Counted from the first letter of the stretch, positions 2,704 through 40,337 are shown. The stretch: 64,000 nt of DNA from Candidatus Poribacteria bacterium (GCA_022820835.1 JAJEET010000039.1:702-64701); one strand, 5' to 3'. Made by a program: numbers and translations. Notes: a model not told the origin generated them from the sequence alone.

Positions 2704-2752
2704 AGAACGACTCCTTAATGATGATTGACCGTCACTTACAAACCGCTGTCAA

Positions 2753-18092: not shown

Positions 18093-18120
18093 TTGACAAA
18101 TTTCCTTTTTCGGTTATAAT
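18093..18120 (+). promoter_or_regulatory. Consensus sigma70 promoter at the head of the AT-rich island
   Basis: TTGACA at 18093-18098, a 16-nt spacer and TATAAT at 18115-18120, about 80 nt upstream of the first island ORF. Confidence 0.55.
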
Positions 18121-18122
18121 TC

Positions 18123-18154
18123 ACGATAGTTATTTCTGAGATTAGGACTATCGT
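18123..18154. promoter_or_regulatory. Perfect 8-bp inverted repeat just downstream of the -10 (operator or 5'-UTR hairpin)
   Basis: ACGATAGT at 18123-18130 and ACTATCGT at 18147-18154, separated by 16 nt. Confidence 0.35.
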
Positions 18155-18198
18155 ATATTTTCAAATCATTAAAACGTTCAAATGGATCAATGCACATT

Positions 18199-18490
18199 AT
18201 GTATCGGTACAGAAAATGCGAGAAAAAAATAAAGTGGAAAACACGCCTTTTGCTGTTCCCTATCTGTCTATGCCTTTTTATTTTTTTTTATAGGTTGTGA
18301 CGGTGAAATGCCTATCCTAGACCCTCCAGAACCGCCACCGCCCTTACCGTCCATATCAGACAAACTTGTTGCGCACCTCTATTTTGACGCTACACTCTCC
18401 AGGCAAGGCTGTGTTGTTCTGGGTTTAACGCATTGCACCGAGATAGGTCCCTCTTTAGAGAGTGTGATTTTAAGGCGGTTGGAGAGATGA
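18199..18490 (+). pseudogene. Small lipoprotein gene split by a +1 frameshift in a T9 homopolymer
   Basis: ATG 18199 encodes MYRYRKCEKKIKWKTRLLLFPICLCLFIFF and then hits a stop at 18298. Removing one T from the T9 run (18281-18289) joins it to ...FFIGCDGEMPILDPPEPPPPLP..., the frame of ORF 18308..18490. That gives a textbook signal peptide plus lipobox (FIGC). Confidence 0.5.
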
Positions 18491-18567
18491 AAAGGCAGTT
18501 TTTTTCGGTTTTGTGAGCAAATTGAGCCTATTTTGGCGAAGGTATTGATAGTTGGAGTTTAATATAA

Positions 18568-20283
18568 TTGAACGAATTACTACAACAAATCTTTAATCTT
18601 GAAACCCCAATTGGTAGAACCATTGTCTACTGGATTCGTATATTCTTTTGGGTCGGTGTTGGAAACTACATTTGGCATTTAGGACGGTTAGGATATGAAT
18701 ATATCTGTCTTAAATTTGTTCAAATCAAAATCAAAAGGGGTCTTGATGTTATATCTCCTGATTTACTCAATCGGTTAGCTAAATCCGTAGTCATCCGTAC
18801 AGGTATTAGAGTAAGTATTATTTACCGGCGAATTCATGATCTGGGTAAAATTAAGCAGAACGGCGGTGAAATTGATCATAATGTCCTCGGTGACATCCAT
18901 GCAGGGGCAACCAGCAGAAAGGCAGGTTTATCGAACTATATCCTCGGTATTCTTATTATCCTCGGTTTAGTTGGGACATTGTGGGGATTAACGACGGCAG
19001 TTATTGAAGTCCAACCGCTTTTGCAAGACATTGATGACCTTGACCAATTGCCCCAAATTTCACGTGCCCTACAGGAAACATTAAAGGGCATGGGCACCGC
19101 ATTTAAAACGACGTTAGCAGGTTTGGTAACATCACTCGGTTTGGGGGCTTTGGGATGGCTTTTTAGTCTTTTAAACTCGGCTTTTCTCACCCAGTTTGAA
19201 ACAGTTGTAGCCACAGAAATAATTCCGCCTTTCAAACAAACCCCAGAGTCATTAATTGAATCCTCTGTAGATCAACTTCAGGTAAGTGTTGGCGAATTTA
19301 AGTTAGCAACGGAAGACAATGTTCGGAGAATGCAGGAATCAATTCAACAATTAACAGAGAAGTCATGGGATGCCTATCTGGAACAACAATACGTCATCGC
19401 AAATGAGTTGCGTGAGATTCCAGGAGAACTTCGTGAAAGTTTAGGCGGAATAAGTGAATATCAAGTCCTGATTAAATCCACGGTGGCATCTTTTGAGAAA
19501 ATGACTGAGAATTTCATGACCGAAATCTCAAAAAATCAATCTGCTGTGGATACTATGGTTGAAGAATTTAGGACATTAACAGAGAAATCCATGTCTCAAG
19601 TTTCGGAGTATCAAGCAGCACTACTTGAAGGTTTAGAAAATGTCGTATCAGAGTTTAAAGAAGAAAGTACGGAATTGAAAACGACAATTCGTGATGCTCA
19701 GAGTTCGCAAGCAAAATTTATTGACGAGCTTGCTAACAACCTTGCTGGCATTCTTGAGAAACAGTTTCAACCCATTGTAGAAAATCAGCAAGATATGATG
19801 GAAGGACTCCGTGTAACGGTTATTAATATACGCCAAATTGCTGACGAGTTACAGATACGGTCTGCTCTTGAGAAGCAGAACGAAGTTTTTGAGAGCATCA
19901 AATCAGAGTTGATACAAAATCAGCAGGAAATGCGTAATAGACTATCGGAATTAATAAGTAAACTTCAAATTATACCTGCTCTTGAGGCACAGAATAAAGT
20001 TTTTGGACGGATTGAAAGTCATCTGGCAGGGCAACGTGACTTGGTCGATAAGCAGATAGAAATAATGCAAACATTAGATAGCAGTGTGAACCGGCTCCAA
20101 CAAACTTTTTCAAAAACAGAATCGGATGAGCAGCAACGTACAGAGCAAATGTTACAGCAGCTCAGGCTGAATTTTGTCGCGCTCAGCGAGAAGATGGATA
20201 CATTGAACCATACAATGAGCAAGCCAGGTTTATATCGTTGGGGATCGGAAATTCGCCGTTGGTTTGGTGTTTTTCGCAGGTAG
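18568..20283 (+). CDS. MotA/ExbB/TolQ-family channel protein with a C-terminal coiled-coil tail of about 350 aa (ZorA-like architecture)
   Basis: Three TM segments. MotA_ExbB-like signature LGILIILGLVGTLWGLTTAV ... LKGMGTAFKTTLAGLVTSLGLGALGW. The remainder is heptad-rich and Q/E-rich with an internal repeat (ALEKQNEVFESIKSEL / ALEAQNKVFGRIESHL). TTG start with GGAG 10 nt upstream. Confidence 0.75.
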   Translation: MNELLQQIFNLETPIGRTIVYWIRIFFWVGVGNYIWHLGRLGYEYICLKFVQIKIKRGLDVISPDLLNRLAKSVVIRTGIRVSIIYRRIHDLGKIKQNGGEIDHNVLGDIHAGATSRKAGLSNYILGILIILGLVGTLWGLTTAVIEVQPLLQDIDDLDQLPQISRALQETLKGMGTAFKTTLAGLVTSLGLGALGWLFSLLNSAFLTQFETVVATEIIPPFKQTPESLIESSVDQLQVSVGEFKLATEDNVRRMQESIQQLTEKSWDAYLEQQYVIANELREIPGELRESLGGISEYQVLIKSTVASFEKMTENFMTEISKNQSAVDTMVEEFRTLTEKSMSQVSEYQAALLEGLENVVSEFKEESTELKTTIRDAQSSQAKFIDELANNLAGILEKQFQPIVENQQDMMEGLRVTVINIRQIADELQIRSALEKQNEVFESIKSELIQNQQEMRNRLSELISKLQIIPALEAQNKVFGRIESHLAGQRDLVDKQIEIMQTLDSSVNRLQQTFSKTESDEQQRTEQMLQQLRLNFVALSEKMDTLNHTMSKPGLYRWGSEIRRWFGVFRR

Positions 20284-20310
20284 TAGTAGAAGGCAGTAGG
20301 AGAGATATTA

Positions 20311-20973
20311 ATGGACCTTCGGATGCGTCAAAATTCTGCTTTGAACGTGTGGCCCGCTTTTACCGATGTTTCCATCGCGATGCTGCTCATCTTTATATTT
20401 TTTCTTTTCATTCAATTTGTTTCCAACAGCAAGTTGATTTTGAAAATCCGAATGGAGAAAAAGCAGGACACGATACAAGAAGCTTTTGAAAAAAGGTTTG
20501 CCAATGAAATAAAAAGAGGTATTATCTCTATTGAACGGGATGGCAACCTGCAGCGATTTATGTTTAGTGACCGAATCCTATTTAAAACTGATGAGGCTGT
20601 CCTCCAACCGCTTGGAAGGTCTACACTCACTGCTGTTGGTCGGTTATTACAGAATTACAAAACGGACGAGAAGGGGCAGCAGTTGTATCAAAGTATTCAA
20701 ATTGAGGGACATACGGACAATGTCCCTATTATGTCTCCAGACCGTTCAAACTGGGAGCTGTCATCAGATCGAGCGATTGCCGTTTTACGTCTTTTTGTCG
20801 ATCATATTGGCATTGATCCGCGAACGCTAAAGGCAACAGGTTATGCAGAATTTCGTCCTGCTGCAGGTGATAGTTCTAATATAGAAGGTGCTAACAGTAC
20901 CGAAACGAAACGCGCGAAAAATCGCAGAATTGAGATCGTTTTAGTCTATTCGGAAACGGAGGGGAACAGGTGA
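20311..20973 (+). CDS. MotB/ZorB-like protein: N-terminal TM with conserved Asp plus OmpA-like peptidoglycan-binding domain
   Basis: WPAFTDVSIAMLLIFIFFLF resembles the MotB TM (Asp codon at 20365-20367). OmpA-like motifs are IEGHTDNVPI, SNWELSSDRAIAVLRLF and NRRIEIVL. Confidence 0.85.
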   Translation: MDLRMRQNSALNVWPAFTDVSIAMLLIFIFFLFIQFVSNSKLILKIRMEKKQDTIQEAFEKRFANEIKRGIISIERDGNLQRFMFSDRILFKTDEAVLQPLGRSTLTAVGRLLQNYKTDEKGQQLYQSIQIEGHTDNVPIMSPDRSNWELSSDRAIAVLRLFVDHIGIDPRTLKATGYAEFRPAAGDSSNIEGANSTETKRAKNRRIEIVLVYSETEGNR

Positions 20974-22352
20974 GCGTTTGTCCTTATGCAAATACGAGTG
21001 AGGTATGTGGCCTGCCAGCAGTAAATACGGATCAGGGCAGTATAGTTGCTTATTGCCAAAAGTGTTCTGAGGTTATTTTTCGATGTGCTTCGGGGCATTG
21101 GAATCGTGCTTTTGCGCGTTATTGCACACAATGTCGTCAAGAACTTGAGAAACCTGCACAATGGGGTATGGCTTCGGCAAATCCGCAACGCACCGCAACA
21201 CTGCCCCACATATCTTCTGTTGATGCTCTGAATCGTGATTACGGTTTCAATACTGGGGTTGTAAATATCCCTAAGATGAACGTTGATGGAGATTTGCCCG
21301 GAATCCTTGTGATTGATGGATTGATCGTCGTCCCGAATCCTAATGAAAAAAAATTGGATGCCTACACAATAGCGAATCCATTCGATCAGAGGAATCTTAA
21401 ATTGAAGTGGAGTATCTCTTACGATGAGGCGTTAACTTATGGGGCAACGCCAGTTTATCATGGGTTCCATCTATACTATGTTAGTTCGGCTGGTATTCGG
21501 CGACAGCCAGTTGTTGGCGGAGAAGTAAAACCTGTGGAATTGAATGATGTAACTTCCGCACCTATTCAACCTACTCCGAAATGCGCCCCACTGAAATGTT
21601 ATATCAATAGAAGTCCAACAATGATTGTTGGCTTGGAGCAAGGTGTGCTACTCTTAGACCTTGTAAATAATGAAAGTAACTATATTGGGCACAAATTTTT
21701 CAGCGAAAACACGGTGATGTCGCCCGTTCAGTGCCGAGAATATATAGTTTTCACTACACTTCAGGGACAAATCTTTACGCTTAACATGAATATGATTGGT
21801 GATAAGATGGTACCGCCAAAGGTGTATCGGGATATATCTTTCTCTGCTCCCATTTCGTTAAGCGGGAGGGTTTATTTTGAGGCTTTAAGCGGGAGCGGCA
21901 ACCGGAGCCTTGCATGTTTCGATCCGAGTTCGGGCAAATTGTCTAAAGTAATAGAAATGGACAACGACCCAGAAAGCAATTTTGAAAATCGCCAAGTTCT
22001 TTTCACACACCCTCCACTTACTGATGGAAACCGATTGTTTGTGTCTGATAGGTATGGAAAGCAGGTTTATATCTATGATATCGAAGATGGTTATTCATCT
22101 AAAAGAAGTTTGCCGCAAAACGATGTTCGATATATGTTTGCTCCGCACCTATCTATCGTTGTGAATAACCGAATTTATTCTCCGACTTCATACGGTTTAA
22201 CTACTCTGGATCTTACACAGAATTATGCCGCCGGACATCGATCATTGGCAATGGGGATGCCACCGGTACCGAAACCGATTGCCCGCCCTGTTCGGTATGG
22301 TGATAAATTGTTTATTTTATGTGAAGATCGACTACTGTGTCTCGGTTGTTAG
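20970..22352 (+). CDS. Double zinc-ribbon protein with C-terminal PQQ/BamB-like beta-propeller
   Basis: The GTG start overlaps the upstream stop (GTGA). The N-terminus has Cys pairs CPYANTSEVCG...CQKCSEVIFRC...CTQCRQEL. It is followed by repeated strand motifs (LIVVPN, HLYYVSS, YIVFTTLQGQIFTLN, GRVYFEAL, NRLFVSDRYGKQVYIYD, DKLFILCEDRLLCL). Confidence 0.6.
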   Translation: MSVCPYANTSEVCGLPAVNTDQGSIVAYCQKCSEVIFRCASGHWNRAFARYCTQCRQELEKPAQWGMASANPQRTATLPHISSVDALNRDYGFNTGVVNIPKMNVDGDLPGILVIDGLIVVPNPNEKKLDAYTIANPFDQRNLKLKWSISYDEALTYGATPVYHGFHLYYVSSAGIRRQPVVGGEVKPVELNDVTSAPIQPTPKCAPLKCYINRSPTMIVGLEQGVLLLDLVNNESNYIGHKFFSENTVMSPVQCREYIVFTTLQGQIFTLNMNMIGDKMVPPKVYRDISFSAPISLSGRVYFEALSGSGNRSLACFDPSSGKLSKVIEMDNDPESNFENRQVLFTHPPLTDGNRLFVSDRYGKQVYIYDIEDGYSSKRSLPQNDVRYMFAPHLSIVVNNRIYSPTSYGLTTLDLTQNYAAGHRSLAMGMPPVPKPIARPVRYGDKLFILCEDRLLCLGC

Positions 22353-22366
22353 GAGGTCGATTTATA

Positions 22367-24286
22367 ATGGAATACTTAATAAGTGTTCAGAGACATATTT
22401 TTTTTGTAATAGTTTTCCTTGTTTTGATGCTATTCTTGCCAGCAGCACATGCCAAACATATTATAGTTGTTTACGATGTGTCTGGTAGTATGATTGGCCT
22501 TAAAATTGGTGGGAGAACAGAAGTCTATATGGAGTCCGATGATATACGTCGGGTTAACGATTATTTGGTAGGTCTGCTATTTACGGATACGTCGCAATCT
22601 TTGCGTGATAGCAATGACACACACATTGAGGAATGCAAAGCTACGTTCGTCGGTAAACCTCTCTACCAGAGCGGTGATGTACTCACTTATGTCGAATATG
22701 CAAAACAAGGGAAGATAAAAATAAACAGATCAAAGGTATCTCGTAACGAATTTCAACGGCAGCTGCCAAACCCGATAAACCTAAAATCATCCTTCCCTGG
22801 GTTGGTTTCTTACTTGCTGCGCGCAGAGGTTGAGGTGTATGACGAATTATACCGTAAGGATGACAATGAAACGTATTGGGTCTTTGTAACGGATGGTGAT
22901 ATTGATAATAGTGGAAAAAGCGATCCTGGCATAACTACAGTCTTACAACGACAGGCAGCAATTGAAAAGGAATTTTATTCGCCACTAATATTGAGTCTTT
23001 TTGTTAACAATCATGTTAAAATTGAAGTTAGACAACTTCAAAAACGGGACGACATCAAGTCAATTTTTATTGCGACTCCAATAAAACCAAAACAGCCAGT
23101 GCGAAAAATACAACTCTCGAGAAATATGGAAGGGCAGTTTTTCAGTGAAACCTTAACTATTGACACGGAGAATTCCGCAAAAACGAAATTTAAACTCAAC
23201 AGTGTCGGTGTAGAAGTTGTTGATAAACACAACAGACCTCTTCAAATTGTGACTGAAGATAATGGATTCGGTGTGCTTGAAGTTCCGCCTATTTTACTTA
23301 ACGAAAATTCACCACCGTATGAATTTCAAATACTGCTTTCCGCACATCCAGAACTTGCTGCTCCCGGCAATGCGTTAAAACTTGAGGTCATATATAACTA
23401 CAATGGTAAAGATGAAGTCTACTCAGCCCCGCTGATGAACTATACAGCAGTTATTGACAGTATCTATGTTGCCACGCTTGAAGAGCCTGATCATCCGACA
23501 AAAAAGTTAGATATCGTTTTTTCTGAAGGTAAATATAGCCAAGCGTTGACTATTCAGAGTGAGAGTCCAAACATAGACGCGTTCCAAATCGGTGAAATCC
23601 GTTGTCAAATTCAGTATAAGGATACCCGTAAACTTTGCGATGTGACTGTGCCTCAAACAATAAAGCGTTTGGGTGAATCTTTTAACTTAGAAGTACCAAA
23701 AGAAAACCGTTTGGATTGGTATGGCAACAAAGTTGTATTTGAAATTGATTATCAATATGAGGGCGATACCAAATCAACTACGATTCAGATGCCCTTTAAA
23801 GTCCGAGGTGGTGGAACAGGTTTCCCAATGTGGTTGCTTTGGGTTCTAATTGCTATTCCTTTAGTTGGCCTTGTTTTACTATTGGTTCGCCAGATAAAGC
23901 CTATCCTTGTTCCTCCTCTACCTGTCTATCATGTTGCGTTAACCGAAGTGGGCGAAGGGGGCACTGAATTAGGGGAAACAAAATATGTTATATTTAAGGA
24001 CAAGGCTACACTTGAATTTGGGGCGCGTGGTTCCAATGAATCCCGTTTTGATGTTGGAAGTGAAGCTTTCTTGTACTGCGACAAGAAAAATATCATACTT
24101 TTTACTGATGCTGACGACGACGAAGGACAAATATTAGATTTACCAGAAACAATAACGTTGATTCGAGATGAAGATGATGAAGTCTGCGTCCGTTGTGAGA
24201 TAGTAGACGATACCTCTGACGAATCAGAGGAGGAGCGATCTATTATTGACGCGAATCCTTCTAATGATGACCCGCTTGGTGTATGA
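22367..24286 (+). CDS. Secreted von Willebrand factor A (vWA) protein with a single TM and an acidic cytosolic C-terminal domain
   Basis: AGGAGG RBS lies 10 nt before ATG 22367. Signal peptide ...LFLPAAHA, then the MIDAS motif IIVVYDVSGSM (22475-22492). TM segment FPMWLLWVLIAIPLVGLVLLLV. The C-terminal domain of about 125 aa ends in a D/E-rich tail ...NDDPLGV. Confidence 0.8.
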   Translation: MEYLISVQRHIFFVIVFLVLMLFLPAAHAKHIIVVYDVSGSMIGLKIGGRTEVYMESDDIRRVNDYLVGLLFTDTSQSLRDSNDTHIEECKATFVGKPLYQSGDVLTYVEYAKQGKIKINRSKVSRNEFQRQLPNPINLKSSFPGLVSYLLRAEVEVYDELYRKDDNETYWVFVTDGDIDNSGKSDPGITTVLQRQAAIEKEFYSPLILSLFVNNHVKIEVRQLQKRDDIKSIFIATPIKPKQPVRKIQLSRNMEGQFFSETLTIDTENSAKTKFKLNSVGVEVVDKHNRPLQIVTEDNGFGVLEVPPILLNENSPPYEFQILLSAHPELAAPGNALKLEVIYNYNGKDEVYSAPLMNYTAVIDSIYVATLEEPDHPTKKLDIVFSEGKYSQALTIQSESPNIDAFQIGEIRCQIQYKDTRKLCDVTVPQTIKRLGESFNLEVPKENRLDWYGNKVVFEIDYQYEGDTKSTTIQMPFKVRGGGTGFPMWLLWVLIAIPLVGLVLLLVRQIKPILVPPLPVYHVALTEVGEGGTELGETKYVIFKDKATLEFGARGSNESRFDVGSEAFLYCDKKNIILFTDADDDEGQILDLPETITLIRDEDDEVCVRCEIVDDTSDESEEERSIIDANPSNDDPLGV

Positions 24287-24411
24287 AATTATTTCTTGTC
24301 ATTTTTTCCTATTCATGGTATCTTGCACGCGCATGAGTCAGAAATTTTATTAACTATGAGCGTGCTTTGGAGCATGCCGAGTGACAATAATTGGATATTC
24401 AAGGAGAATGT

Positions 24412-24807: not shown

Positions 24808-24852
24808 TGAAAACCGCTGTCTGCATAATTTCTAAATACGAGGGAAGACTCT

Positions 24853-28344: not shown

Positions 28345-28350
28345 TCGAGT

Positions 28351-31080: not shown

Positions 31081-31136
31081 GTGGAAGTTGACATTAATCC
31101 AGTATTGATTGTTATATTCCTGACAACGGATTTCCT

Positions 31137-32387
31137 ATGCAGAAAATCGTATGTATCATTGATCTCTCCGCTATCGAAATTCAGATTGGTGTTTTCACTG
31201 AAAAGAAATTTAAAATCATCCGTCCGGCACTCCCATGGAAGGTTGGATTTCGGCAAGTAACCGATGGTACATTAGTTTCTTGTTTTGGGGAAATGTTGGA
31301 TCGACTTGATCCAGACAATCCCGCGGAAGTTCGGTTCACAGACTTGGATGTGAAATTCAAGGAAATTACAGATGAAAAAACCTTAGAATGCTTATTTAAC
31401 GCATTTTTTCAGGAGATTTTTCATCGGAGGTTATCTGAACACGAATATTCTATGGATGCTATATCGGTATATGTTATTACACCGTTCGAGTGGAAACCCG
31501 TACACCGTCAACAGTTCAGGAAAGCATTCAAGCGTTTAAATAGCAAAATGCCGGTTTCATTTCTCAAGACATCAAATGTGACACTCCGGGGTGTACTCAG
31601 CCAGATTCTATGCCTTTCTGCCTATTATCAGAAGACGTGGATTAATATACTCACAGACCCAAACAAATGCCATCTGTTTCTGGTAGATTTTGCACGGAAC
31701 GATTTTGTAGTCTATCATACGATTTGTAATCAACTGGAAGACAGTATTATAGTTGAATTAACCGATATACTGCGGTTTATTGACTTCTTTATGGATATAG
31801 ATAAAAAGGTTTCAGATGTGCAAAAGATGTTTCAACAGGTTGAGGAGGGGCAGCACGTTGCAATTGGTTTTTCTGGCAGAATTGACGATACTGCTCTAAA
31901 GTTCATTGAATTGTTGCGAGCGCGACACAGCGCAACATTTCTTGAACCGCAGGAGACCGCAACACTTTTGGGTGGGGCAGAATTGGTTAGGTACTTTGAA
32001 GAAGAAAACCTTGAAAAACCACTTCACTTTATCTATAATTATTGCTTCGGTGTGCAGTTACCTGATGGAAAAAATGTTGATTTTGTCCCAAATACATGGA
32101 CACCCCCCTATCATCGTAAAAAAGCCTTTCGTGTCACGGGGGACGTTAAAGAATTCAATGTCCATCTTTACTGCGGCTTATCCATGACGACTAACAGCGA
32201 TGTCCATCATCTCGCGACACTTAAGATTGTCCCGCGGGAGAATAAAAAATATACATTGAACAGCCCGATGGAATTTATACTTTCTGTTACCTTGAATGAT
32301 GCTACGCATGGTACATTTGCTTTACATCTTCCAAATTCACAAGGGGCGCAATCGGTTGGATTTACTATACCAGTTTTGATGGACTAA
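31137..32387 (+). CDS. Degenerate Hsp70-like paralog (predicted pseudo-ATPase)
   Basis: Collinear with Hsp70 but with eroded motifs: IIDLSAIEIQIGVF (vs DLGTTNS), LFLVDFARNDFVVY (vs DLGGGTFD), VAIGFSGRIDDTAL (vs LVGGSTRIP) and ATLLGGAELV. The SBD-beta-like C-terminus reads YCFGVQLPDGKNVDF...EFILSVTLNDATHGTFALHL. Confidence 0.5.
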   Translation: MQKIVCIIDLSAIEIQIGVFTEKKFKIIRPALPWKVGFRQVTDGTLVSCFGEMLDRLDPDNPAEVRFTDLDVKFKEITDEKTLECLFNAFFQEIFHRRLSEHEYSMDAISVYVITPFEWKPVHRQQFRKAFKRLNSKMPVSFLKTSNVTLRGVLSQILCLSAYYQKTWINILTDPNKCHLFLVDFARNDFVVYHTICNQLEDSIIVELTDILRFIDFFMDIDKKVSDVQKMFQQVEEGQHVAIGFSGRIDDTALKFIELLRARHSATFLEPQETATLLGGAELVRYFEEENLEKPLHFIYNYCFGVQLPDGKNVDFVPNTWTPPYHRKKAFRVTGDVKEFNVHLYCGLSMTTNSDVHHLATLKIVPRENKKYTLNSPMEFILSVTLNDATHGTFALHLPNSQGAQSVGFTIPVLMD

Positions 32388-32423
32388 AACCATGTTCACC
32401 ACAGGTTATACAAGGGAAACGCA

Positions 32424-33629
32424 ATGTCTTATTTCAGATTTATATTATTCTTCACATTAATACTATTGGGTTTTGTTTCAATTGGGTTTTCACAAGGAGA
32501 CGGAGACCAACTAGACATTGAACCAGTTTTATCGGAATCTCTGCTTTGGACTGTGTTAATCGTTCTCGTGATACTTGCAATCCTTGCTTTGGTCGTTTTT
32601 TTCGTTGTTAAAATGGTTAGGCGATGGAAAGCAATGTGGCAAAAAACACAGGTATTATCTACAGACATAAATCATCTTACTCATGAATTAAATGGAAAGT
32701 TGGATACTATTCAGAAAATTAGCACCGGAAACGCCAACAAATTTAAAGAAATAGAATCAATACAAGCATCAGTTCAAAAAGACCAGGAAAGTATACAATT
32801 TGATATTGGGCAAATAAGAAACTATATCAGCCAAGTTAGCACGTATTTGGAAGAATTACATTCTAATAGAAGCGTTGATGTAGATGATACAAGGGTCTCA
32901 ATTGATTATCCTCTTGAAGTGCAAAAAGCAGTCCAATCGGCAAAAAATCGGGTATTGAAAATAGCAAAGGCTTACGAAAATGGCGAACCGATGGAATTAG
33001 TTGGTGTTGATAGCCCAACACCAAGTCAGAATGTGTTGATAATTTTAAATTCAATGGCGTATGATTTAGGTGAATGGAAAGCAGAAATAGAACAATCCGC
33101 GACAGCTAATTCCGAATTTGTAGATATTTTAACAAACGCAGAAAGTGACATCAGAGATAGGCTTAAACGCATTCGCAGTAAATCTCCAATTTCGCCTATA
33201 CCTCTTGATGTAAAAACTGATGTCAACACAGAAATTGAACTGAATCATATCCGCAATCAGTGTATTGCTTATGCTGCCTATTTTGAGGGAGTGCTTACCG
33301 GATATGAACTGACATATAAGGTTGATGAGGAGGAATATAACCAATTTATTCCACAATTTATCAGGTATCGCCTGTTTAATGAGGTTGCAGATTTTGTGCC
33401 CTTTGAAGATTTGCCTGAAAAAATGGAAAGATTTTTAAGGTTTTTAGATTATGAAGTGGTTCCTATTGAAATAGAGATAACGAAAGCTGATTCACATGTA
33501 CATGATATACGGGAATCAAGGCAATCTAACGGCGAACCTGGAACTGTCATTGAGATCGTTTCCCCAGGTCTTAGGCGTATAGCAGACGGTGAAATTGTTC
33601 AAAAACCGGTGGTCATCCGCGGAGAATAA
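32424..33629 (+). CDS. Membrane-anchored coiled-coil protein with a GrpE-like C-terminal domain
   Basis: Two N-terminal hydrophobic segments followed by RRWK, then a long coiled-coil region. The C-terminus ADSHVHDIRESRQSNGEPGTVIEIVSPGLRRIADGEIVQKPVVIRG mirrors the GrpE beta-domain pattern (FDPxxHeA...gtVvev.q.GY.l.gr.lRpA.V.V). Confidence 0.6.
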   Translation: MSYFRFILFFTLILLGFVSIGFSQGDGDQLDIEPVLSESLLWTVLIVLVILAILALVVFFVVKMVRRWKAMWQKTQVLSTDINHLTHELNGKLDTIQKISTGNANKFKEIESIQASVQKDQESIQFDIGQIRNYISQVSTYLEELHSNRSVDVDDTRVSIDYPLEVQKAVQSAKNRVLKIAKAYENGEPMELVGVDSPTPSQNVLIILNSMAYDLGEWKAEIEQSATANSEFVDILTNAESDIRDRLKRIRSKSPISPIPLDVKTDVNTEIELNHIRNQCIAYAAYFEGVLTGYELTYKVDEEEYNQFIPQFIRYRLFNEVADFVPFEDLPEKMERFLRFLDYEVVPIEIEITKADSHVHDIRESRQSNGEPGTVIEIVSPGLRRIADGEIVQKPVVIRGE

Positions 33630-33635
33630 CGCACA

Positions 33636-34688
33636 ATGTACACCAGACTCCTGATTGTCCTTCTAATCAGTGGATTTCTTATCAGTGCGGATGCTTTTGC
33701 AGAAGATGCCTTGAGTTTTGTACAGATTGTAGAGGGCATGACTCAGCAACGCCCGTCCAATACTCGCCAAACAATCGGACGGCGGTATGTGTGGAATTTT
33801 AAGAGAAGACCCTACACCGTCCTAATGACAATTGATCTGGAAAAATATAATTCATACTCCGGCAAAGAACGCTACGATATTCCCAAATTGGTTGAAGAGG
33901 GTAGAACAACTATTGGCAATCTAACGCGTGAGTTCCAACGTATCTTCAAACAAAATCGCAACTGGAATCGGCAGGACCGTGTTGATTTTGTCTTAAGCTT
34001 TGTCCAATCTTTGCCTTACACGTTTGATGACGTGACGACAGGTTATGATGAATTTAGAAGGTATGCCGTTGAAACACTGATTGAAGGCGGTGGCGACTGT
34101 GAAGATACGACGATCTTGGTGGCGGCTATTCTGCGTGGGTTAGGCGAAAAGGCCGCCCTGATTTTTACGCCCGGACACATTGCGATCGGTGTCAGTGGAG
34201 ATTTCACAGGATCATCGCTGACTTACAACGGTATCAAATACTTCTATTGCGAAACGACTGGAACGGGTTGGACCGTTGGTAAACTCCCGGCATCTGTCGG
34301 TAAAACTGTAGAGGCAATTGTCCCTTTAAGTCCTTCTAAGGTAGGTCCTGCACCGAAACCTGACAAGGTAACGACACCGACACCAGAAACGGATCCGACA
34401 CCCGTTATACCAGAACCTACACCAGAACAGCCACCTATCCAACCGGAGCCAGAACCGATAAAACCAAAACCTGAACCAGAACCCGAAAAGTCTAAACCTC
34501 CCAAAAAAGACACCTCAGAAACAGGTAGCACTGTGGGCATGGTGCTTGCAACGCTCTTTATACTTGTCGGTTTGGGAATACCCATTGCGTATATAGTCTA
34601 CCGTTTTGTCTTTGCAGATAACGATGATGACGATGATGACATATACTATGACGATACGCCAGAGTCAACAAATCCGTTAGACTGGTAA
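33636..34688 (+). CDS. Secreted transglutaminase-like/papain-fold cysteine protease-like protein with a Pro-rich linker, C-terminal TM and acidic tail
   Basis: Signal peptide ...SADAFA. Core GGGDCEDTTILVAAILRGLG (Cys codon 34098-34100) ... TPGHIAIGV ... YCETTG. The PxP linker spans about 60 aa. TM segment VGMVLATLFILVGLGIPIAYIVY. Tail ADNDDDDDDIYYDDTPESTNPLDW. Confidence 0.6.
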   Translation: MYTRLLIVLLISGFLISADAFAEDALSFVQIVEGMTQQRPSNTRQTIGRRYVWNFKRRPYTVLMTIDLEKYNSYSGKERYDIPKLVEEGRTTIGNLTREFQRIFKQNRNWNRQDRVDFVLSFVQSLPYTFDDVTTGYDEFRRYAVETLIEGGGDCEDTTILVAAILRGLGEKAALIFTPGHIAIGVSGDFTGSSLTYNGIKYFYCETTGTGWTVGKLPASVGKTVEAIVPLSPSKVGPAPKPDKVTTPTPETDPTPVIPEPTPEQPPIQPEPEPIKPKPEPEPEKSKPPKKDTSETGSTVGMVLATLFILVGLGIPIAYIVYRFVFADNDDDDDDIYYDDTPESTNPLDW

Positions 34689-34778
34689 TTATTTGTAGGT
34701 TGTAGAGAACGGTGGAAAATTCGCTGTATGGCAAAAAAACAATAGGTTAGGAAACCATACCTACGTAGTTGAACGAGA

Positions 34779-35273
34779 ATGACCGCTCAGGAAAAAATAA
34801 GACTTACATGGCTCGTGAATATCGCTGTGGTATGTTTAGGTTTAGGTATTATGCTGCCGGTTATGCGAATTGATGCGAACGATGGCACTATCCGCGGATT
34901 TATCATGGCGTTTATCACACCTGGACCTTCAAGTTATTCGATTTTGAGTAGCGTCTGGGCATTGATAAAGAAAGGTATTGTCATGGACGTTATACTTGGG
35001 AGCATTATCTTTCTTTTTTCGGTTGTTTTTCCAATCTTGAAGTTAGGCGTGTTCTATCATACACTCAGTGGTGGTACACCGAACAGAGGTATTTCAGCAT
35101 TCGTTCACAAATGGGGTCGGTTTTCGATGCTTGATGTCTATATCGTCGCTATATTGATACTGACAATCAGGAGCCTCCCCGGTGGTGCACAGATTGAGCC
35201 GAGTTGGGGACTATTGCTCTTTACAATCTCGGTCGTTCTCAGCCTTTACATTTCATCACGCCTTGAGGCATAG
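34779..35273 (+). CDS. PqiA-like integral membrane protein (single-repeat)
   Basis: PqiA-family patterns: SILSSVWALIKKG, IIFLFSVVFPILKL, WGRFSMLDVYIVAILIL and EPSWGLLLFTISVVLSL. Confidence 0.6.
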   Translation: MTAQEKIRLTWLVNIAVVCLGLGIMLPVMRIDANDGTIRGFIMAFITPGPSSYSILSSVWALIKKGIVMDVILGSIIFLFSVVFPILKLGVFYHTLSGGTPNRGISAFVHKWGRFSMLDVYIVAILILTIRSLPGGAQIEPSWGLLLFTISVVLSLYISSRLEA

Positions 35274-35277
35274 ATTT

Positions 35278-37857
35278 ATGATTGATCACCTAAAAGATAT
35301 TCATCGTGTGCTATACCTACCGGCAGCACCAGAATCAGAGGAACCTCCATTCAAGGTTACCCCGATTAATGATCCCTATCTCTATACCGATGCGAACATC
35401 TATGTAGATACATTTGATAATCCGAACCAGTCTGTAAAGGTGATGGTATCAAATGTTGGTGACGGGAAGTTGCATGTTGAACGAATTCGTGTTCCTCGCG
35501 GATTTGAAAAGTGGATAAAACGGGCAGAAGGATCAAAACCTGCGACTTTGACATCAACATCAGATCCATTGGAACTTGAACTGAAACTCAACCTTAGAAC
35601 CCTACCAAATCCTTCATCGGAAAATATAGTAAAACTGAGCATCCTTTCCAATTCAAAACGCAAAACGTTTAGTGAGATATTGTTACGTGTGCAACCCCCA
35701 TGCACTCAATCTACCAATTTGACGCTCCCAGAATATATCAACTTTGGTGAGATAACTACTTATAAAGTCTCTATTGCTGATAACCGTGAAGATGCTACGG
35801 TACCGACAGCCGACTTTCTGCTCATTGGGGATTTTACGCCTTACCCTCCAACCCGTCTTGAAGTGATACAAAAAGACGAATCCTCTTTTGGTGCGAAGAT
35901 AACCACATCAAAAGGCGAATTGTCTTATGAATTGGACTTGCAGAAATCGGGAGTCGTAATGCCTCGAGAAAAAAAGACTGGAATTACACTAAAATATTTC
36001 CAACAAACTATTCCAATTCCAAATGTTACCCCACACAGATCATCAACGCAGATTTCAACATCGGATTCGGATTGGTTAGTTGTCCCACCTCAAATCCAAA
36101 CTGATGGATATGATACAACCGATTTACCTGTTTCTATAAATGTTGAAAAACTGGAAGCGGGGCGTAATGTTGCGGAGCTCGGTGTAGCAGATCAAAAAAT
36201 ATCGGTGTGGGCGTGGTATAAAGTTGTCAAAGAAACGGCATTGACGTTAGACAAGGAACAGGCAGATATCCACCATGTTGAAGTTTTCGGTGAGCAAGAA
36301 ACACCTTTACCAATTAATGTCGTATCAACAGAGGGACCGTCCCAATCCGTGATGATTTTTGAGGATTTAGATTTTCGATTTCCATTGGCAGGCAAAGAAC
36401 GGAGTAGTTATCTGATAGGCGATTTTAATCAATGGACGCCGCGCACGCTTTTTCTGAAAAAAAGAGATGACGGTTTTGGTCTTACACTGAGTGTTTCTGA
36501 AGGAACCTACCTTTATCGTGCCGAAATTGATGGCGAAATTCGACTTGACCCTACGCGGTTGGACGAGATAATCTGCTGTCCGCACGGAGTGGCATCCAAA
36601 ATACAGGTCAATCGTATTGAACAAAAGGTAACACTGCAAAACAGGTCTAAACAGAAGATAGGGTTTAAACTTCAATCTCTGACAGAATGGTTGCGTATTA
36701 AGCCTGAGACGCTTGTGCTTCCCGCAAGAAAAAAACGAGAGGTAACTGCAATAATCCGACCCGAACGCCTCTTACCAGGGCTCAATTTAGGATGGATACG
36801 GCTGGAATCGGAAAGAGAACCGATAAAGTCGTTTCTCGCTCCTGTTTATGTTATGGGTGTGACAAATGGAGCTGTCCCTATCCTCCGAAATGAAGAATTG
36901 ATTTTTCCGCAAATTGAACAAGGCAAAGTAGAGGGCGTTCCGCTGGCACTTGACATCGTTGGTGAAGGTGAATTGAAGGGTGAAGTGCAGCCGTCTACTG
37001 TCTTGCGTTTTGTAGAAGCGGATTGGCATGTTCAAAACGAGACGGCATTTGAACCAATGACAGCTGCACCACTTGTTCAAGTGTTGAGTGAAAGACCTTC
37101 TAACGCCTATCGTAAACAGGTTCGTGCGTCTCTGGTTACAGATTGTTATCTTGCGAACCGTCGTGTGCATCGTTTTGATGCCAAATATGATATGGTTCAC
37201 CTTGTCACAGAACCGCCCGCTTTATATTTTCCCAAAGTGCATCTATTTGATGATCCACAGCATGCTGATATTACGGTAAAACGCAGTGATGGTAAAGGCG
37301 ACATTGTATGTAATGTTGAAATACCTGATGCGTTAAAACAGACCGGATTATTAAGGGTTGAGAATGACGCTGAGACAAATATATCTGATCGTTGTGGATT
37401 TGTGCTTAATCCGCAGGCTGTAACGGATGCTGGACGTGTTTCTGAGAGTTTACACCTTCAGGACAAAAGGTCCGGTATGGTGCTCCCAATTCAATTCGCG
37501 GTGGATTTTGTCGGAGGTCAAGCGAAGATTGATGTTAACGCTCAGGTGAAACGCACAAATCTATCATCTGGTGGCATACCGTTAGTGATTACCAATATCG
37601 GTGAAACTGAGTTACGGATATTTGAGGTGCGATTTAAAAATATGCGGTTTTACCTCTCATCGCATCTGACTTCGCAGCAACGTACCCTTCTCCCTGGGAA
37701 ATCTATTGAGAGACTTATAAAAGTAAAAAAAACATTGAGTTTATTAGGGAAAACAACAGTTCGGGACGCGCTTATTATTAGACTCAATGATCCACAGTTT
37801 CCTAACGGAGTCTTTGAAAAGGAAATCCAAGGACATATTCCTGGTTTTAGACGTTAA
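35278..37857 (+). CDS. Large cytosolic multi-beta-sandwich protein with an AMPK-beta/CBM48-like (E-set) domain
   Basis: I place the start at ATG 35278 (MIDHLKD), 4 nt after the upstream stop. The longer ORF from 35182 overlaps the PqiA-like gene. PapD/ASH-like strand motifs are VMVSNVGDGKLHVERIRVP, VTLQNRSKQKIGFKLQS and LVITNIGETELRIFEVRF. The CBM48-like motif is YLIGDFNQWTPRTLFLKKRDDGFGLTLSVSEGTYLYRAEIDGEIRLDP. Confidence 0.55.
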   Translation: MIDHLKDIHRVLYLPAAPESEEPPFKVTPINDPYLYTDANIYVDTFDNPNQSVKVMVSNVGDGKLHVERIRVPRGFEKWIKRAEGSKPATLTSTSDPLELELKLNLRTLPNPSSENIVKLSILSNSKRKTFSEILLRVQPPCTQSTNLTLPEYINFGEITTYKVSIADNREDATVPTADFLLIGDFTPYPPTRLEVIQKDESSFGAKITTSKGELSYELDLQKSGVVMPREKKTGITLKYFQQTIPIPNVTPHRSSTQISTSDSDWLVVPPQIQTDGYDTTDLPVSINVEKLEAGRNVAELGVADQKISVWAWYKVVKETALTLDKEQADIHHVEVFGEQETPLPINVVSTEGPSQSVMIFEDLDFRFPLAGKERSSYLIGDFNQWTPRTLFLKKRDDGFGLTLSVSEGTYLYRAEIDGEIRLDPTRLDEIICCPHGVASKIQVNRIEQKVTLQNRSKQKIGFKLQSLTEWLRIKPETLVLPARKKREVTAIIRPERLLPGLNLGWIRLESEREPIKSFLAPVYVMGVTNGAVPILRNEELIFPQIEQGKVEGVPLALDIVGEGELKGEVQPSTVLRFVEADWHVQNETAFEPMTAAPLVQVLSERPSNAYRKQVRASLVTDCYLANRRVHRFDAKYDMVHLVTEPPALYFPKVHLFDDPQHADITVKRSDGKGDIVCNVEIPDALKQTGLLRVENDAETNISDRCGFVLNPQAVTDAGRVSESLHLQDKRSGMVLPIQFAVDFVGGQAKIDVNAQVKRTNLSSGGIPLVITNIGETELRIFEVRFKNMRFYLSSHLTSQQRTLLPGKSIERLIKVKKTLSLLGKTTVRDALIIRLNDPQFPNGVFEKEIQGHIPGFRR

Positions 37858-38972: not shown

Positions 38973-39002
38973 GTTTTTCAACTAAGGGAATACCATTAAA
39001 AA

Positions 39003-39767: not shown

Positions 39768-39768
39768 T

Positions 39769-39866: not shown

Positions 39867-39890
39867 CACAAAAAGGAGAAAAATTATATT

Positions 39891-40172: not shown

Positions 40173-40187
40173 CGAGTAGTAAAAAAT

Positions 40188-40327: not shown

Positions 40328-40337
40328 TGAAAAACTG

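Follow-up and report, generated by a model that had tools for sequence, protein, structure and literature searches.

A conserved poribacterial gene cluster encoding a ZorAB-like stator pair, an FtsZl1-family tubulin-like GTPase and an Hsp70 module

In a computational study, Makarova and Koonin (2010, PMC2875224) described FtsZl1 (Tubulin_2) operons in which genes for vWA and OmpA-family proteins, GTPases and kinases also occur, and inferred a role in membrane remodelling and vesicle biogenesis for them. Tubulin plus vWA and HSP70 plus GrpE plus second-HSP70 themes were later placed among the parts of GTPase-centred conflict systems by Kaur, Burroughs, Iyer and Aravind (2020, PMC7159879), where the tubulin and HSP70 themes do not overlap as described. 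Experiments on Zorya revealed that its long-tailed stator motor detects invading phage and transmits the signal along the tail (Hu et al. 2024, PMC11946911).

The window analysed here is a 64,000-nucleotide stretch of DNA from a Candidatus Poribacteria bacterium, and positions are counted from its first letter. I found a cluster of 12 intact plus-strand ORFs (18568-37857). A sigma-70-type promoter, TTGACA-16-TATAAT (18093..18120, +), matches the consensus at 12 of 12 positions and lies ahead of all 12 ORFs. The closest relative, L009, has the identical promoter sequence, while near-consensus promoters lie 70-80 nt 5′ of the ZorA-like gene in L012, L013, L015 and L020. The start codon GTG at 20970 overlaps the stop codon of the preceding gene, the gaps at 28344/28351, 33629/33636 and 35273/35278 are 6, 6 and 4 nt, and the largest intergenic distance in the cluster is 104 nt. 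Promoter-like and terminator-like sites inside the cluster do not exceed shuffle expectation. Thus, the operon-like packing and the single consensus promoter claimed in a preliminary description of this DNA hold, and the 12 genes are best explained as one putative co-transcribed unit. That description had counted 13 genes. The additional one, a small ORF with a signal peptide and a lipobox FIGC (18199..18490, +), is a remnant or phase-shifted; a +1 shift within a T9 run (18281-18289) interrupts its reading frame. L009 has a counterpart of 49 aa whose frame is intact; none was found in 16 other distinct Poribacteria loci with enough upstream sequence. The lipoprotein was therefore rejected as a conserved cluster member.

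The GC content of the cluster is 41%, against about 50% in the flanks. It is lower than that of the upstream flank in every Poribacteria locus measured, with a difference of less than 1.5 points in four of them. Within the window, the cluster is flanked by ordinary metabolic genes and not by a defence island, and no tRNA, att-like repeat or mobility gene was found at the locus. As had been claimed, no nuclease, helicase or mobility family was found among the island proteins in the Pfam, NCBIfam and PADLOC scans (Pfam only for two small membrane proteins). A Walker A P-loop is absent from all 12 proteins.

Is this gene set a chance juxtaposition? The 12 genes are collinear in about 20 species representatives of Poribacteria, a sponge-associated phylum, with one locus per chromosome or MAG and a tubulin-like protein that is 42-93% identical. 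All poribacterial lineages sampled carry the cluster in strict synteny; the stator, core and Hsp70 modules are never apart in these species, and the genomic location is kept only in the closest relative. Beyond Poribacteria, Lentisphaerae, Hydrogenedentota and unclassified MAGs share a core made up of the Zn-ribbon propeller, the vWA-like receptor, the small TM protein, Tubulin_2 and Hsp70. The order propeller-vWA-smTM-Tub(-Hsp70) was found in Lentisphaerae (L031), Hydrogenedentota (L037), UBA9089 (L022) and L038; Tub-ZorA-like-OmpA in two Chthonomonadales (Armatimonadota) MAGs (L029 and L030) and one unclassified MAG (L032); and Tub-Hsp70...GrpE-like...MotA_ExbB in L028. A TIR-NB-ARC-TPR gene adjoins the Lentisphaerae locus. 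Outside Poribacteria the system is rare and patchy, with 60 vWA-like representatives among 1.84e9 proteins. Since the genes are collinear in Poribacteria and their parts recur jointly in other phyla, the set is a co-inherited unit, as the preliminary description had supposed.

The first gene (18568..20283, +) encodes a 571-aa MotA/ExbB-family channel subunit whose C-terminal tail, a coiled coil of about 350 aa, contains a 38-aa internal repeat. The window protein fails the Pfam MotA_ExbB model, but the proposed channel assignment is supported by a PADLOC ZorA3 match (1.6e-11) and by PDB 8vvn_C (0.0046; the alignment begins in the TM region and extends into the tail), a solved chain deposited as a MotA/TolQ/ExbB proton channel domain protein. 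It is also supported by the counterparts in L028 and L030, which in other phyla adjoin Tubulin_2 genes, are matched by the poribacterial ZorA-like HMM and score above the Pfam cut-off for MotA_ExbB. These matches support a putative ZorA-like stator subunit. The next gene (20311..20973, +) encodes a 220-aa ZorB/MotB-like subunit with an N-terminal TM segment, an invariant Asp19 and an OmpA-type peptidoglycan-binding domain. Its Pfam OmpA match (1.5e-13, above the cut-off) confirms the MotB/OmpA-like peptidoglycan anchor; PADLOC ZorB1 (1.7e-23) and NCBIfam MotB/MotD/PG-binding families also match, and the NxxLSxxRA motif is as invariant as D19. The pair may be read as a stator because the ZorA and ZorB models match, the TM-helix Asp is invariant and the peptidoglycan-binding motif is intact.

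Like ZorAB of Zorya (PMC11946911), the pair combines a MotA/ExbB-family subunit bearing a very long C-terminal coiled-coil tail with an adjoining MotB-like subunit having a TM Asp and an OmpA-type domain, and the tail length, given as 547-735 aa among the ZorA-like orthologs, is polymorphic. In contrast to Zorya, the tail in the cluster is shorter, at about 350 aa, NCBIfam ZorB1 scores far below its cut-off and no NCBIfam ZorA model matches. PADLOC recognised only the ZorA and ZorB models and no ZorC-G effectors in the cluster. Where the ZorAB pair of Zorya neighbours DNA-targeting effectors (ZorC/D, ZorE or ZorF/G), the pair in the cluster neighbours a tubulin-like GTPase and Hsp70-like proteins.

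The cross-phylum core begins with a 460-aa cytoplasmic protein (20970..22352, +) comprising a Zn-ribbon and a probable PQQ-like beta-propeller. The suggested Zn-ribbon beta-propeller is supported by invariant ribbon Cys residues and by Beta-prop_ACSF4 and Zn_Ribbon_1 matches, each in 5 of 16 orthologs, and in L022, L031 and L038 a homolog precedes the vWA-like gene. The second core protein (22337..24286, +; 649 aa) is bitopic and receptor-like. Its hydrophobic segments and motifs suggest an N-terminal signal/TM, a periplasmic vWA-like domain, a beta-rich region, a TM segment (499-517) and a cytoplasmic tail of about 130 aa. The proposed vWA domain is a motif-only assignment: a MIDAS-like motif, DxSxS...(S/T)...D, is present, and all of 23 diverse members retain D-x-S-x-S-M, GD and VSDExxD. 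Weak in-register matches were found to anthrax toxin receptor 1 and to 8s05_A, in which DTSGSM and LLTDGQ fall within the aligned stretch, but no vWA HMM matched in 16 orthologs (Pfam) or in PDB. A small 3-TM protein (24391..24807, +; 138 aa) is always encoded between the vWA-like and tubulin-like genes, in other phyla too. The 1163-aa tubulin/FtsZ-like GTPase (24853..28344, +) belongs to the FtsZl1 family, as its Pfam PF13809 Tubulin_2 match (9.7e-44) passes the cut-off. It consists of an N-terminal Tubulin_2 domain, a conserved middle and C-terminal region, an acidic low-complexity linker and a conserved basic C-terminal peptide; the GLGTTG and GGxCSG loops are invariant, and the best 120 of 281 homologs are near full length.

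The cluster thus resembles the FtsZl1 operons in its central FtsZl1/Tubulin_2 protein, the adjacent MIDAS-like membrane protein, the OmpA-family gene, the many TM proteins, the uncharacterised status and the patchy distribution. It differs in having neither a diverged P-loop GTPase nor a protein kinase, and its OmpA protein would be subunit B of a ZorAB-like stator. The cluster also has Hsp70 genes and a MotA-family partner, of which the sections of PMC2875224 consulted make no mention.

The 909-aa product of the next gene (28351..31080, +) is a fusion of a Zn-ribbon, Ig-like domains and Hsp70. Its Hsp70 part, as had been proposed, passes the Pfam cut-off (HSP70 1.3e-28; MreB_Mbl 2.2e-10), with NCBIfam HscA/DnaK matches and ATPase motifs intact in invariant columns (DFGTTNS, KR, DE..AA, DFGGGTID and GQSS). 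The following 416-aa protein (31137..32387, +) has no Pfam match and was called a degenerate Hsp70 paralog. In an AF2 model (pLDDT 73) it shows an actin-fold ATPase-like domain, with the phosphate-binding motifs lost, and a C-terminal beta-sandwich. Foldseek with this model returned 48 Hsp70-family chaperone entries among the top 50 (E 1e-11 to 1e-7, with TM-scores of only 0.2-0.3); the titles of the other two, 7sqc_Z0 and 9a5j_A, name no protein. An hhalign comparison with the Hsp70 fusion was weak (E 0.084) but in the right register. The structure search thus supports a predicted degenerate Hsp70. The two proteins may be read as an Hsp70 pair because the catalytic motifs are intact in the larger and lost in the smaller, whose model keeps an Hsp70-like fold. 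As a predicted degenerate Hsp70-fold protein encoded beside an active Hsp70 and co-evolving with it, the smaller one resembles atypical Hsp70 partners such as the nucleotide-exchange factor Hsp110 and Ssz1 in RAC, and the Foldseek matches include 3c7n (an Hsp110:Hsc70 complex; the entry title does not identify the matched chain 3c7n_B) and 6sr6 (an Ssz1-containing RAC core). Unlike these, the poribacterial mini-Hsp70 is much smaller, bacterial and without detectable sequence similarity. By analogy, it might form a heterodimer with the active Hsp70.

The next gene (32424..33629, +) encodes a 401-aa membrane-anchored coiled-coil/helical-bundle protein, with TM segments and, in an AF2 model, a small conserved beta domain at its C terminus. 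No other gene of the cluster evolves as fast, and most relatives carry it as a tandem duplicate. The GrpE-like call made for it was not confirmed by Foldseek, Pfam or PDB profiles, although alignment with E. coli GrpE gave a weak register hint. The Hsp70 ATPase part, the mini-Hsp70 and this gene form a block (29240..33640, +) with 58-79% nucleotide identity to L009, versus 82-98%, mostly about 95%, in the remaining cluster. The block was exchanged between strains that share about 88-96% protein identity in the flanking genes and in the rest of the cluster. These identities indicate that it is swapped as one block by recombination between near-identical relatives, and the three parts would be a co-adapted cassette.

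Compared with the DO-GTPase/GAP1-N2 systems (PMC7159879), the cluster shares a tubulin homolog accompanied by an extracellular vWA/beta-rich protein that is bound through a TM segment, an HSP70 with a second, reduced HSP70, Zn-ribbons on cytoplasmic components, membrane proximity and a constant core with a variable part. On the other hand, it lacks the DO-GTPase and GAP1 that define those systems (no protein has a Walker A motif, and Pfam gave no match), combines the tubulin and HSP70 themes, has a ZorAB-like stator and a LapG-like protease in addition, and has no confirmed GrpE.

Three envelope-accessory and beta-sandwich genes complete the cluster. A 350-aa exported protein with a C-terminal TM tether (33636..34688, +) had been called transglutaminase-like. 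Pfam Transglut_core is sub-threshold (0.004), but LapG structures match (4fgo/4fgp/4fgq, 8.2e-5, over GGGDCED), as does NCBIfam LapG (1.1e-4), supporting a putative LapG-like protease. Like LapG of the LapD-LapG-LapA adhesion switch, it is exported, matches over the catalytic GGGDCED region and has an invariant candidate Cys, His and acidic triad (C155, H181 and E206). The likeness spans only about 47 residues; unlike LapG, the protein is anchored through a Pro-rich linker and a C-terminal TM, and the cluster has no LapD-like or LapA-like partner. It and the OmpA-type subunit are the two most conserved proteins of the cluster. The 164-aa 4-TM protein (34779..35273, +) is PqiA-like, as had been stated (Pfam PqiA 5.9e-12, above the cut-off), and its gene is present in only part of the poribacterial loci. 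The last protein (35278..37857, +; 859 aa, orthologs 841-862 aa) is rich in beta-sandwiches, and its proposed CBM48-like match was seen but is below the Pfam cut-off (AMPK1_CBM 7.2e-5). It has no hydrophobic segment able to act as a signal peptide or TM.

A literature search found no published description of the full combination with a ZorAB-like stator. The system would thus be undescribed as a whole, while its pieces were described in silico in 2010 and 2020; the architecture is new relative to those descriptions because a ZorAB-like motor is added and the P-loop GTPase is absent.

My tentative reading, of somewhat below even confidence, is that the cluster encodes a trans-envelope machine on an FtsZl1 core serving a protective response. 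Against such a machine, the vWA and GrpE assignments lack statistical support. Against protection, there is no recognisable toxic or nucleic-acid-targeting effector, and the metabolic-gene flanks carry no mobility signatures. These last two points, with the envelope-related accessories (PqiA-like, LapG-like and OmpA) and the membrane-remodelling/vesicle inference of PMC2875224, agree with a possible but somewhat less likely reading as a constitutively made housekeeping cytoskeleton. It would remodel membranes or organise the envelope (vesicles, invaginations, envelope tethering), the stator giving PMF energy while the tubulin-like polymer and the Hsp70 pair shape or maintain membrane structures. 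Strictly syntenic occurrence throughout the sampled poribacterial lineages, the perfect constitutive-type promoter and the highly conserved protease and OmpA subunit also give the cluster a lineage-wide cell-biological look rather than that of sporadic defence. However, recent cassette replacement within the operon between close relatives, a GC content systematically below that of the genome, a genomic location shared only with the closest relative, extreme rarity beyond the phylum and a stator of defence-type ZorA architecture with a polymorphic tail speak against housekeeping.

It is improbable that the cluster consists of two or three independent systems lying side by side, namely a pair like that of Zorya, an FtsZl1-vWA system and a set of specialised chaperones. 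Tub accompanies only ZorA-like/OmpA in L029, L030 and L032, and the core has no visible stator on the short contigs of L022, L037 and L038. Nevertheless, the modules re-associate in differing orders in unrelated phyla, stay together in about 20 poribacterial species and share one promoter and overlapping or 4-6 nt junctions, and an effector-less ZorAB-like pair would lack output. The substrate of LapG is the adhesin LapA, and CglB, an adhesin of gliding, contains a vWA domain. An adhesion or gliding machine analogous to Myxococcus Agl-Glt, in which a PMF motor and a cytoplasmic filament drive a vWA adhesin released by the LapG-like protease, would unite the stator, cytoskeletal-type NTPases, vWA-like domain and protease of the cluster, but is very improbable, as the vWA-like protein is inner-membrane-anchored by a C-terminal TM without outer-membrane or surface-export features, Pfam found no outer-membrane barrel, secretin or Glt-like gene in the cluster, and no LapD/GGDEF/EAL partner was found.

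A conflict role is favoured because a constant core is joined to a variable cassette, the GC is low relative to the upstream flank in the Poribacteria loci measured, occurrence beyond the phylum is rare and patchy, a TIR-NB-ARC-TPR gene is the Lentisphaerae neighbour, and Kaur et al. (PMC7159879) place both themes in conflict systems. In the proposed protective machine, the Zn-ribbon propeller, the vWA-like bitopic receptor, the small TM protein and the tubulin-like GTPase would form the FtsZl1 core. To this, Poribacteria would add a ZorAB-like 5:2-type proton-driven stator, peptidoglycan-anchored and with a long cytoplasmic coiled-coil tail; an Hsp70 module of an active Hsp70 (Zn-ribbon, Ig-like), a catalytically dead mini-Hsp70 and one or two membrane-anchored coiled-coil cofactors; and an envelope set of the tethered LapG-like protease, the PqiA-like protein and the beta-sandwich protein. 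The periplasmic vWA-like/MIDAS domain and the peptidoglycan-bound stator may register an envelope event such as invader entry or envelope damage, and a tethered partner in the periplasm may be a substrate of the LapG-like protease. The signal would pass through the cytoplasmic tail of the receptor and the ZorA-like tail to membrane-proximal Zn-ribbon proteins and make the tubulin-like protein assemble there in a GTP-dependent manner. The coiled-coil protein or proteins would keep the Hsp70 pair at the membrane, where the pair might load, remodel or disassemble this assembly. The cluster would thus most likely serve a regulated protective response to conflict or envelope insult rather than cell division.

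The cluster consists of twelve intact ORFs on the + strand (18568-37857), packed as the preliminary description had it. The GTG at 20970 overlaps the preceding stop codon, the gaps at 28344/28351, 33629/33636 and 35273/35278 are 6, 6 and 4 nt, and the widest intergenic gap within the cluster is 104 nt. The single consensus promoter claimed for these genes is a perfect TTGACA-16-TATAAT (18093-18120), while within the cluster, sites resembling promoters or terminators are no more frequent than the shuffle expectation. The genes are thus organised behind one promoter, and they are inherited together. The GC content is 41% in the cluster and about 50% on either side of it in the window. Directly 3′ of the -10 hexamer, ACGATAGT ... 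ACTATCGT form an 8-bp inverted repeat (18123-18156, 18-nt spacer), which is kept in L009, the nearest poribacterial relative of the window. It is possible that this repeat is an operator or a 5′ stem-loop of the transcript.

A thirteenth gene, encoding a lipoprotein from position 18199, had also been counted. It was found that this ORF (18199-18490), which follows the promoter and precedes the first conserved gene, has a good signal peptide and a lipobox but is then broken by a +1 frameshift in a T9 run (18281-18289). Deleting one T would restore a lipoprotein of about 97 aa. L009 has an intact 49-aa lipoprotein ORF at the same place, and no counterpart was found in the other checkable poribacterial loci. 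The broken ORF is therefore outside the conserved set, and it may reflect either an assembly error at the homopolymer, a phase-variable gene or a decaying gene.

Is this gene order common in Poribacteria? Searches with the window's proteins (tblastn and HMM) revealed a single order in about 20 poribacterial species representatives: ZorA-like, OmpA/MotB-like, Zn-ribbon propeller, vWA-like, small TM, Tubulin_2, Hsp70 fusion, mini-Hsp70, TM/coiled-coil, LapG-like protease, PqiA-like (in some) and the 859-aa protein. The tubulin-like proteins of these representatives are 42-93% identical. A scan of one genome per species gave 33 loci, 21 of which are titled Poribacteria. In a large protein collection there are 281 homologs of the tubulin-like protein; nearly all of the best 120 are full length or nearly so, and only a few of these 120 have a named source, in each case Candidatus Poribacteria. 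Most loci have two tandem paralogs of the TM/coiled-coil gene; the window has one, and L009 has a second tandem copy. A few poribacterial loci depart from the common layout. A DDE transposase gene (20981-22021) sits between the protease gene and the last gene in L001, L014 has a split vWA-like gene and additional tubulin-like fragments, and L017 is a rearranged, reduced variant in which the propeller, vWA-like and Hsp70 genes were not found within the fetched locus.

Using HMMs made from the poribacterial orthologs, I found partial gene strings in other lineages. L022, a UBA9089 MAG, has the propeller, vWA-like, small TM and Tubulin_2 genes; L031, a Lentisphaerae MAG, has the same four genes with genes for Hsp70 and a coiled-coil protein. 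L031 also has a TIR-NB-ARC-TPR (STAND-type) gene (2099-5011) directly upstream of this string. L028, an unclassified MAG, has genes for Tubulin_2, for Hsp70, for a protein that Pfam GrpE matches below threshold and for a MotA_ExbB protein. In two Chthonomonadales (Armatimonadota) MAGs (L029 and L030) and another unclassified MAG (L032), the Tubulin_2, ZorA-like and OmpA genes are directly adjacent, and no vWA-like or Hsp70 gene was detectable beside them. The vWA-like family is rare, with 60 representatives at 50% identity among 1.84 billion proteins. An exhaustive search for it yielded two distant homologs in a like context, in a Hydrogenedentota MAG (L037) and in another assembly (L038); the order in L038 is propeller, vWA-like, small TM, Tubulin_2, Hsp70, a 403-aa protein and then three TM/coiled-coil proteins. 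Since the stator-tubulin and the Hsp70-tubulin associations recur in several phyla and in differing orders, there is good evidence for a functional linkage. Together with the conserved poribacterial order, this recurrence supports the original proposal that the genes belong together as a coherent trans-envelope system.

The first two genes encode a putative stator. The 571-aa protein matches the PADLOC ZorA3 model (1.6e-11 and 5.4e-11, the second match covering residues 121-547). It also matches PDB 8vvn_C (0.0046 over 115-502), in an alignment that runs from the TM region on into the tail; this entry is a solved protein of 696 aa, deposited as a MotA/TolQ/ExbB proton channel domain protein. 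Pfam MotA_ExbB does not match the window protein itself, but the counterparts adjoining Tubulin_2 genes in other phyla pass the cut-off of this model. The proposed MotA/ExbB-like channel is thus supported as a MotA/ExbB-family subunit of ZorA architecture with a long C-terminal coiled-coil tail, short of a Pfam match in the window. The tail ranges from about 320 to 510 residues among orthologs, differing by up to about 190 aa, and all indels fall in the coiled coil. In the window, the tail carries a 114-nt (38-aa) direct repeat (19862-19891 and 19976-20005). Thus, the tail length evolves by gain and loss of units. The 220-aa partner is firmly a MotB/OmpA-like peptidoglycan anchor (PADLOC ZorB1 1.7e-23, Pfam OmpA 1.5e-13) with an invariant TM Asp (D19) and an invariant peptidoglycan-binding motif NxxLSxxRA. 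Since it scores only 32.6 bits with the NCBIfam ZorB1 equivalog, against a cut-off of 400, it is no more than a candidate ortholog of ZorB.

The 1163-aa protein is firmly a tubulin/FtsZ-like GTPase as first called, with a PF13809 (Tubulin_2) match of 9.7e-44 over residues 6-369. An N-terminal FtsZ-like GTP-binding domain, whose loops GLGTTG and GGxCSG are invariant, is followed by a long non-FtsZ C-terminal part. A PDB profile search with this protein gave no FtsZ or tubulin sequence match, as expected for the divergent Tubulin_2 family. The C-terminus (27800-28344) has an acidic low-complexity linker of about 150 aa and then a conserved basic peptide, KEFSVADVDxK..RR..KKE, a layout resembling the C-terminal linker and peptide of FtsZ. 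Many poribacterial orthologs share it, though some do not, and it does not occur beyond the phylum. The tubulin-like proteins of L029, L030 and L032 have a C-terminal Cys-rich motif, ..YC....C..IG..E.EA...GWRCF..

In the 909-aa fusion, a Zn-ribbon and Ig-like domains precede a firmly identified Hsp70 (Pfam HSP70 1.3e-28). Its catalytic motifs are intact and all invariant (DFGTTNS, K435, E518 and DFGGGTID), and the GTP-binding loops of the tubulin-like protein are likewise intact. The next protein, of 416 aa, had been described as a degenerate Hsp70 paralog. It has no detectable sequence relatives beyond Poribacteria, and Pfam, a PDB profile search and BLASTP against the neighbouring Hsp70 all gave nothing. 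In a Foldseek search with its AlphaFold model (pLDDT 73), however, 48 of the top 50 hits are Hsp70-family entries, and the titles of the other two name no protein. E-values go down to 1e-11. Since the TM-scores are low (0.2-0.3), the domain arrangement is uncertain. A profile alignment with the neighbouring Hsp70 is weak but in the correct register, and it indicates that the phosphate-binding motifs are lost. Thus, the modelled structure, rather than sequence methods, supports a second protein of predicted Hsp70 fold.

The third member of this module, a 401-aa TM/coiled-coil protein, had been called GrpE-like, and this identity was not borne out. Pfam GrpE matches none of its 18 orthologs, GrpE is not among the PDB profile matches of the whole protein or its C-terminal 120 aa, and Foldseek with the AF2 model (pLDDT 73) returned no GrpE (best E 0.2). 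An hhalign comparison with E. coli GrpE gave E 0.025 over the bundle region, a motif-level hint. In the L028 gene string, the sub-threshold Pfam GrpE match (4.5e-4) belongs to a 495-aa ORF located two genes upstream of MotA_ExbB. Compared with a DnaK-DnaJ-GrpE system, the cluster has the Hsp70 nucleotide-binding domain with its catalytic residues and lacks a J-domain, for which no cluster protein has a Pfam match.

These three parts move together. The window and L009 are mostly about 95% identical in nucleotide sequence at 20.4-29.2 kb and 33.64-37 kb, but identity falls to 58-79% between about 29,240 and 33,640 (about 14400-20040 in L009). One breakpoint falls within the Hsp70 gene, immediately ahead of the ATPase domain, and the other coincides with the end of the TM/coiled-coil gene. 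One exchanged, co-transferred cassette thus carries the ATPase part of the Hsp70 together with the mini-Hsp70 and the coiled-coil protein, and the cassette of L024, another relative, is much closer to that of the window. Because they travel as one unit, the three are predicted to contact each other.

The vWA domain that had been assigned to the 649-aa protein is a weak call. In its favour, D-x-S-x-S-M, G-D and VSDExxD are invariant in 23 diverse family members as MIDAS-like motifs. The domain also gives weak in-register matches to PDB 8s05_A (E 0.05), whose aligned stretch carries vWA-type DTSGSM and LLTDGQ, and to anthrax toxin receptor 1 (E 0.65-1.6). On the other hand, HMM support was found nowhere: Pfam VWA matches neither the window protein nor 16 orthologs scanned singly nor the distant homologs, and PDB profile searches with the whole protein, the N-terminal domain or the broadened 23-member domain gave best E-values of 0.05-1.6. 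Ten distant homologs are all annotated as hypothetical or lack annotation.

The 460-aa protein is supported as the Zn-ribbon beta-propeller originally described, with invariant ribbon cysteines and matches to a PQQ-like propeller family in 5 of 16 orthologs. The 350-aa exported protein matches structures 4fgo-4fgq at 8e-5 over a catalytic GGGDCED motif and has invariant Cys, His and Glu, supporting a LapG-like protease. I take these entries, titled "periplasmic protein" in the database, to be Legionella LapG. The PqiA-like protein is firm (Pfam PqiA 5.9e-12). The 859-aa protein was described as CBM48-like; a CBM48 match is present but sub-threshold, and the assignment is weak. Similarity between the Ig-like N-terminus of the Hsp70 fusion and the 859-aa protein is not significant. 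Taken together, the topology places the vWA-like domain and the protease in the periplasm, anchors the stator to peptidoglycan, and leaves the Zn-ribbon proteins, the tubulin-like protein and the Hsp70s in the cytoplasm.

Three kinds of known systems share parts with the cluster. In Zorya, a ZorA5B2 motor senses phage invasion and signals via its tail to nuclease effectors (PMC11946911). The cluster has the ZorA and ZorB architecture, but the type-defining soluble effectors are absent: PADLOC, run on 10 proteins, matched none of ZorC and ZorD, ZorE, or ZorF and ZorG. In line with the preliminary description, Pfam gave neither a nuclease nor a helicase domain in the cluster proteins. The second kind comprises the FtsZl1-vWA operons. 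In Makarova and Koonin (2010; PMC2875224), FtsZl1 was defined, its operons with vWA, OmpA-family, GTPase and kinase genes were pointed out, and membrane remodelling was proposed. The adjoining vWA protein usually has an intact MIDAS motif, and the OmpA-family protein, diverged P-loop GTPase and kinases are frequent rather than obligatory partners. The cluster likewise has an FtsZl1/Tubulin_2 protein and an OmpA-family gene, but it has no Walker A or Pfam kinase match for the GTPase and kinases frequent in those operons.

The third kind is the GTPase-centred conflict systems of Kaur et al. (2020; PMC7159879). Their variable part is either a tubulin with a TM-bound vWA protein or an HSP70 with GrpE and a second, reduced HSP70, and these tubulin and HSP70 themes were described as non-overlapping. 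The defining DO-GTPase and GAP1 are absent from the cluster. None of the 12 proteins has the [AG]xxxxGK[ST] Walker A P-loop of a TRAFAC-clade DO-GTPase or matches a Pfam or NCBIfam GTPase family. No Pfam match to GAP1 (GAP1-N2, -M or -C) was found at E<=0.01 in the cluster proteins or in per-member propeller scans; the Pfam copy searched presumably contains the GAP1 models. Of the two themes, the cluster has the tubulin and HSP70 by Pfam, a second HSP70 fold by Foldseek and a candidate vWA domain by motifs only, while GrpE is unsupported. Thus, the cluster has parts in common with all three kinds of systems and fits none; it unites the tubulin theme with that of Hsp70 and adds a stator and a LapG-like protease. 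I found no paper naming the stator, tubulin and Hsp70 combination; much subscription literature is outside this search, and the absence is not proof. Nor did the search return an experimental study of any FtsZl1 (Tubulin_2) protein or predicted tubulin/vWA/Hsp70 conflict system. The system called undescribed is so for its full combination in the literature searched, although related kinds had already been predicted in silico. Overall, the preliminary description was largely correct, with its lipoprotein, GrpE and vWA calls needing correction or caution.

In the window, the cluster is flanked by ordinary metabolic genes, for oxidoreductases, an aldolase and sulfur assimilation. Upstream lies a TonB-dependent receptor with a CarboxypepD_reg domain (10050-12944). 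The downstream genes (38022-40790) look like sulfur assimilation and encode a PALP (CysK-like) enzyme, a PAPS reductase and a JAB-domain protein. A 72-aa DUF433 ORF of an antitoxin-like family (17585-17803) is just upstream of the cluster, and between an RraA-like gene and this ORF the DNA of L009 (1252-2439) is longer than that of the window by about 1.2 kb. Only the closest relative has the same upstream neighbours. In every poribacterial locus measured, the GC content of the cluster is lower than that of its upstream flank, by 0.1 to about 11 points. No Rfam families were found.

How might such a system work? An event at the envelope would be sensed by the stator and the vWA-like receptor and passed on to the cytoplasm, where the tubulin-like protein may then assemble at the membrane. 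Control of this assembly might fall to the active Hsp70, which would pair with the dead mini-Hsp70 and be tethered to the membrane through the coiled-coil protein. I tentatively favour a protective role, as a response to conflict or envelope insult. The ZorA-type architecture points that way, as do the variability of the cassette, the lowered GC content, a distribution that is rare and patchy beyond the phylum and, in one locus, the TIR-NB-ARC-TPR neighbour. A constitutive role in membrane remodelling is only slightly less probable; in its favour are the synteny throughout the phylum, the strength of the promoter, the metabolic genes on either side and the lack of an effector. A prophage or integrative element was rejected for want of an integrase, att site or tRNA (the cluster borders have no tRNA, att-like or flanking direct repeat or mobility gene, and no relatives were found on viral contigs), and so was a flagellar stator, as no flagellar genes are nearby.

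Apart from the favoured protective role, a bolder and rather unlikely conjecture is that the long tail of a ZorAB-type proton-driven rotary motor physically couples it to a polymer of the tubulin superfamily and to an Hsp70 heterodimer. It would serve phylum-fixed normal cell biology, such as membrane invagination or compartment formation, rather than being a sporadic defence island. If true, this would be a prokaryotic device turning proton-motive force or envelope signals into cytoskeletal assembly. As a compact 12-gene, single-promoter unit, the cluster is open to synthesis and testing. In the literature searched, long-tailed ZorAB motors are set within nuclease-based phage defence. Here, throughout one phylum and again in other phyla, a ZorAB-like stator stands in stable partnership with a tubulin-like GTPase and an Hsp70-fold pair. 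This points to long-tailed stators as general transducers of signals or energy, able to feed non-nuclease outputs.
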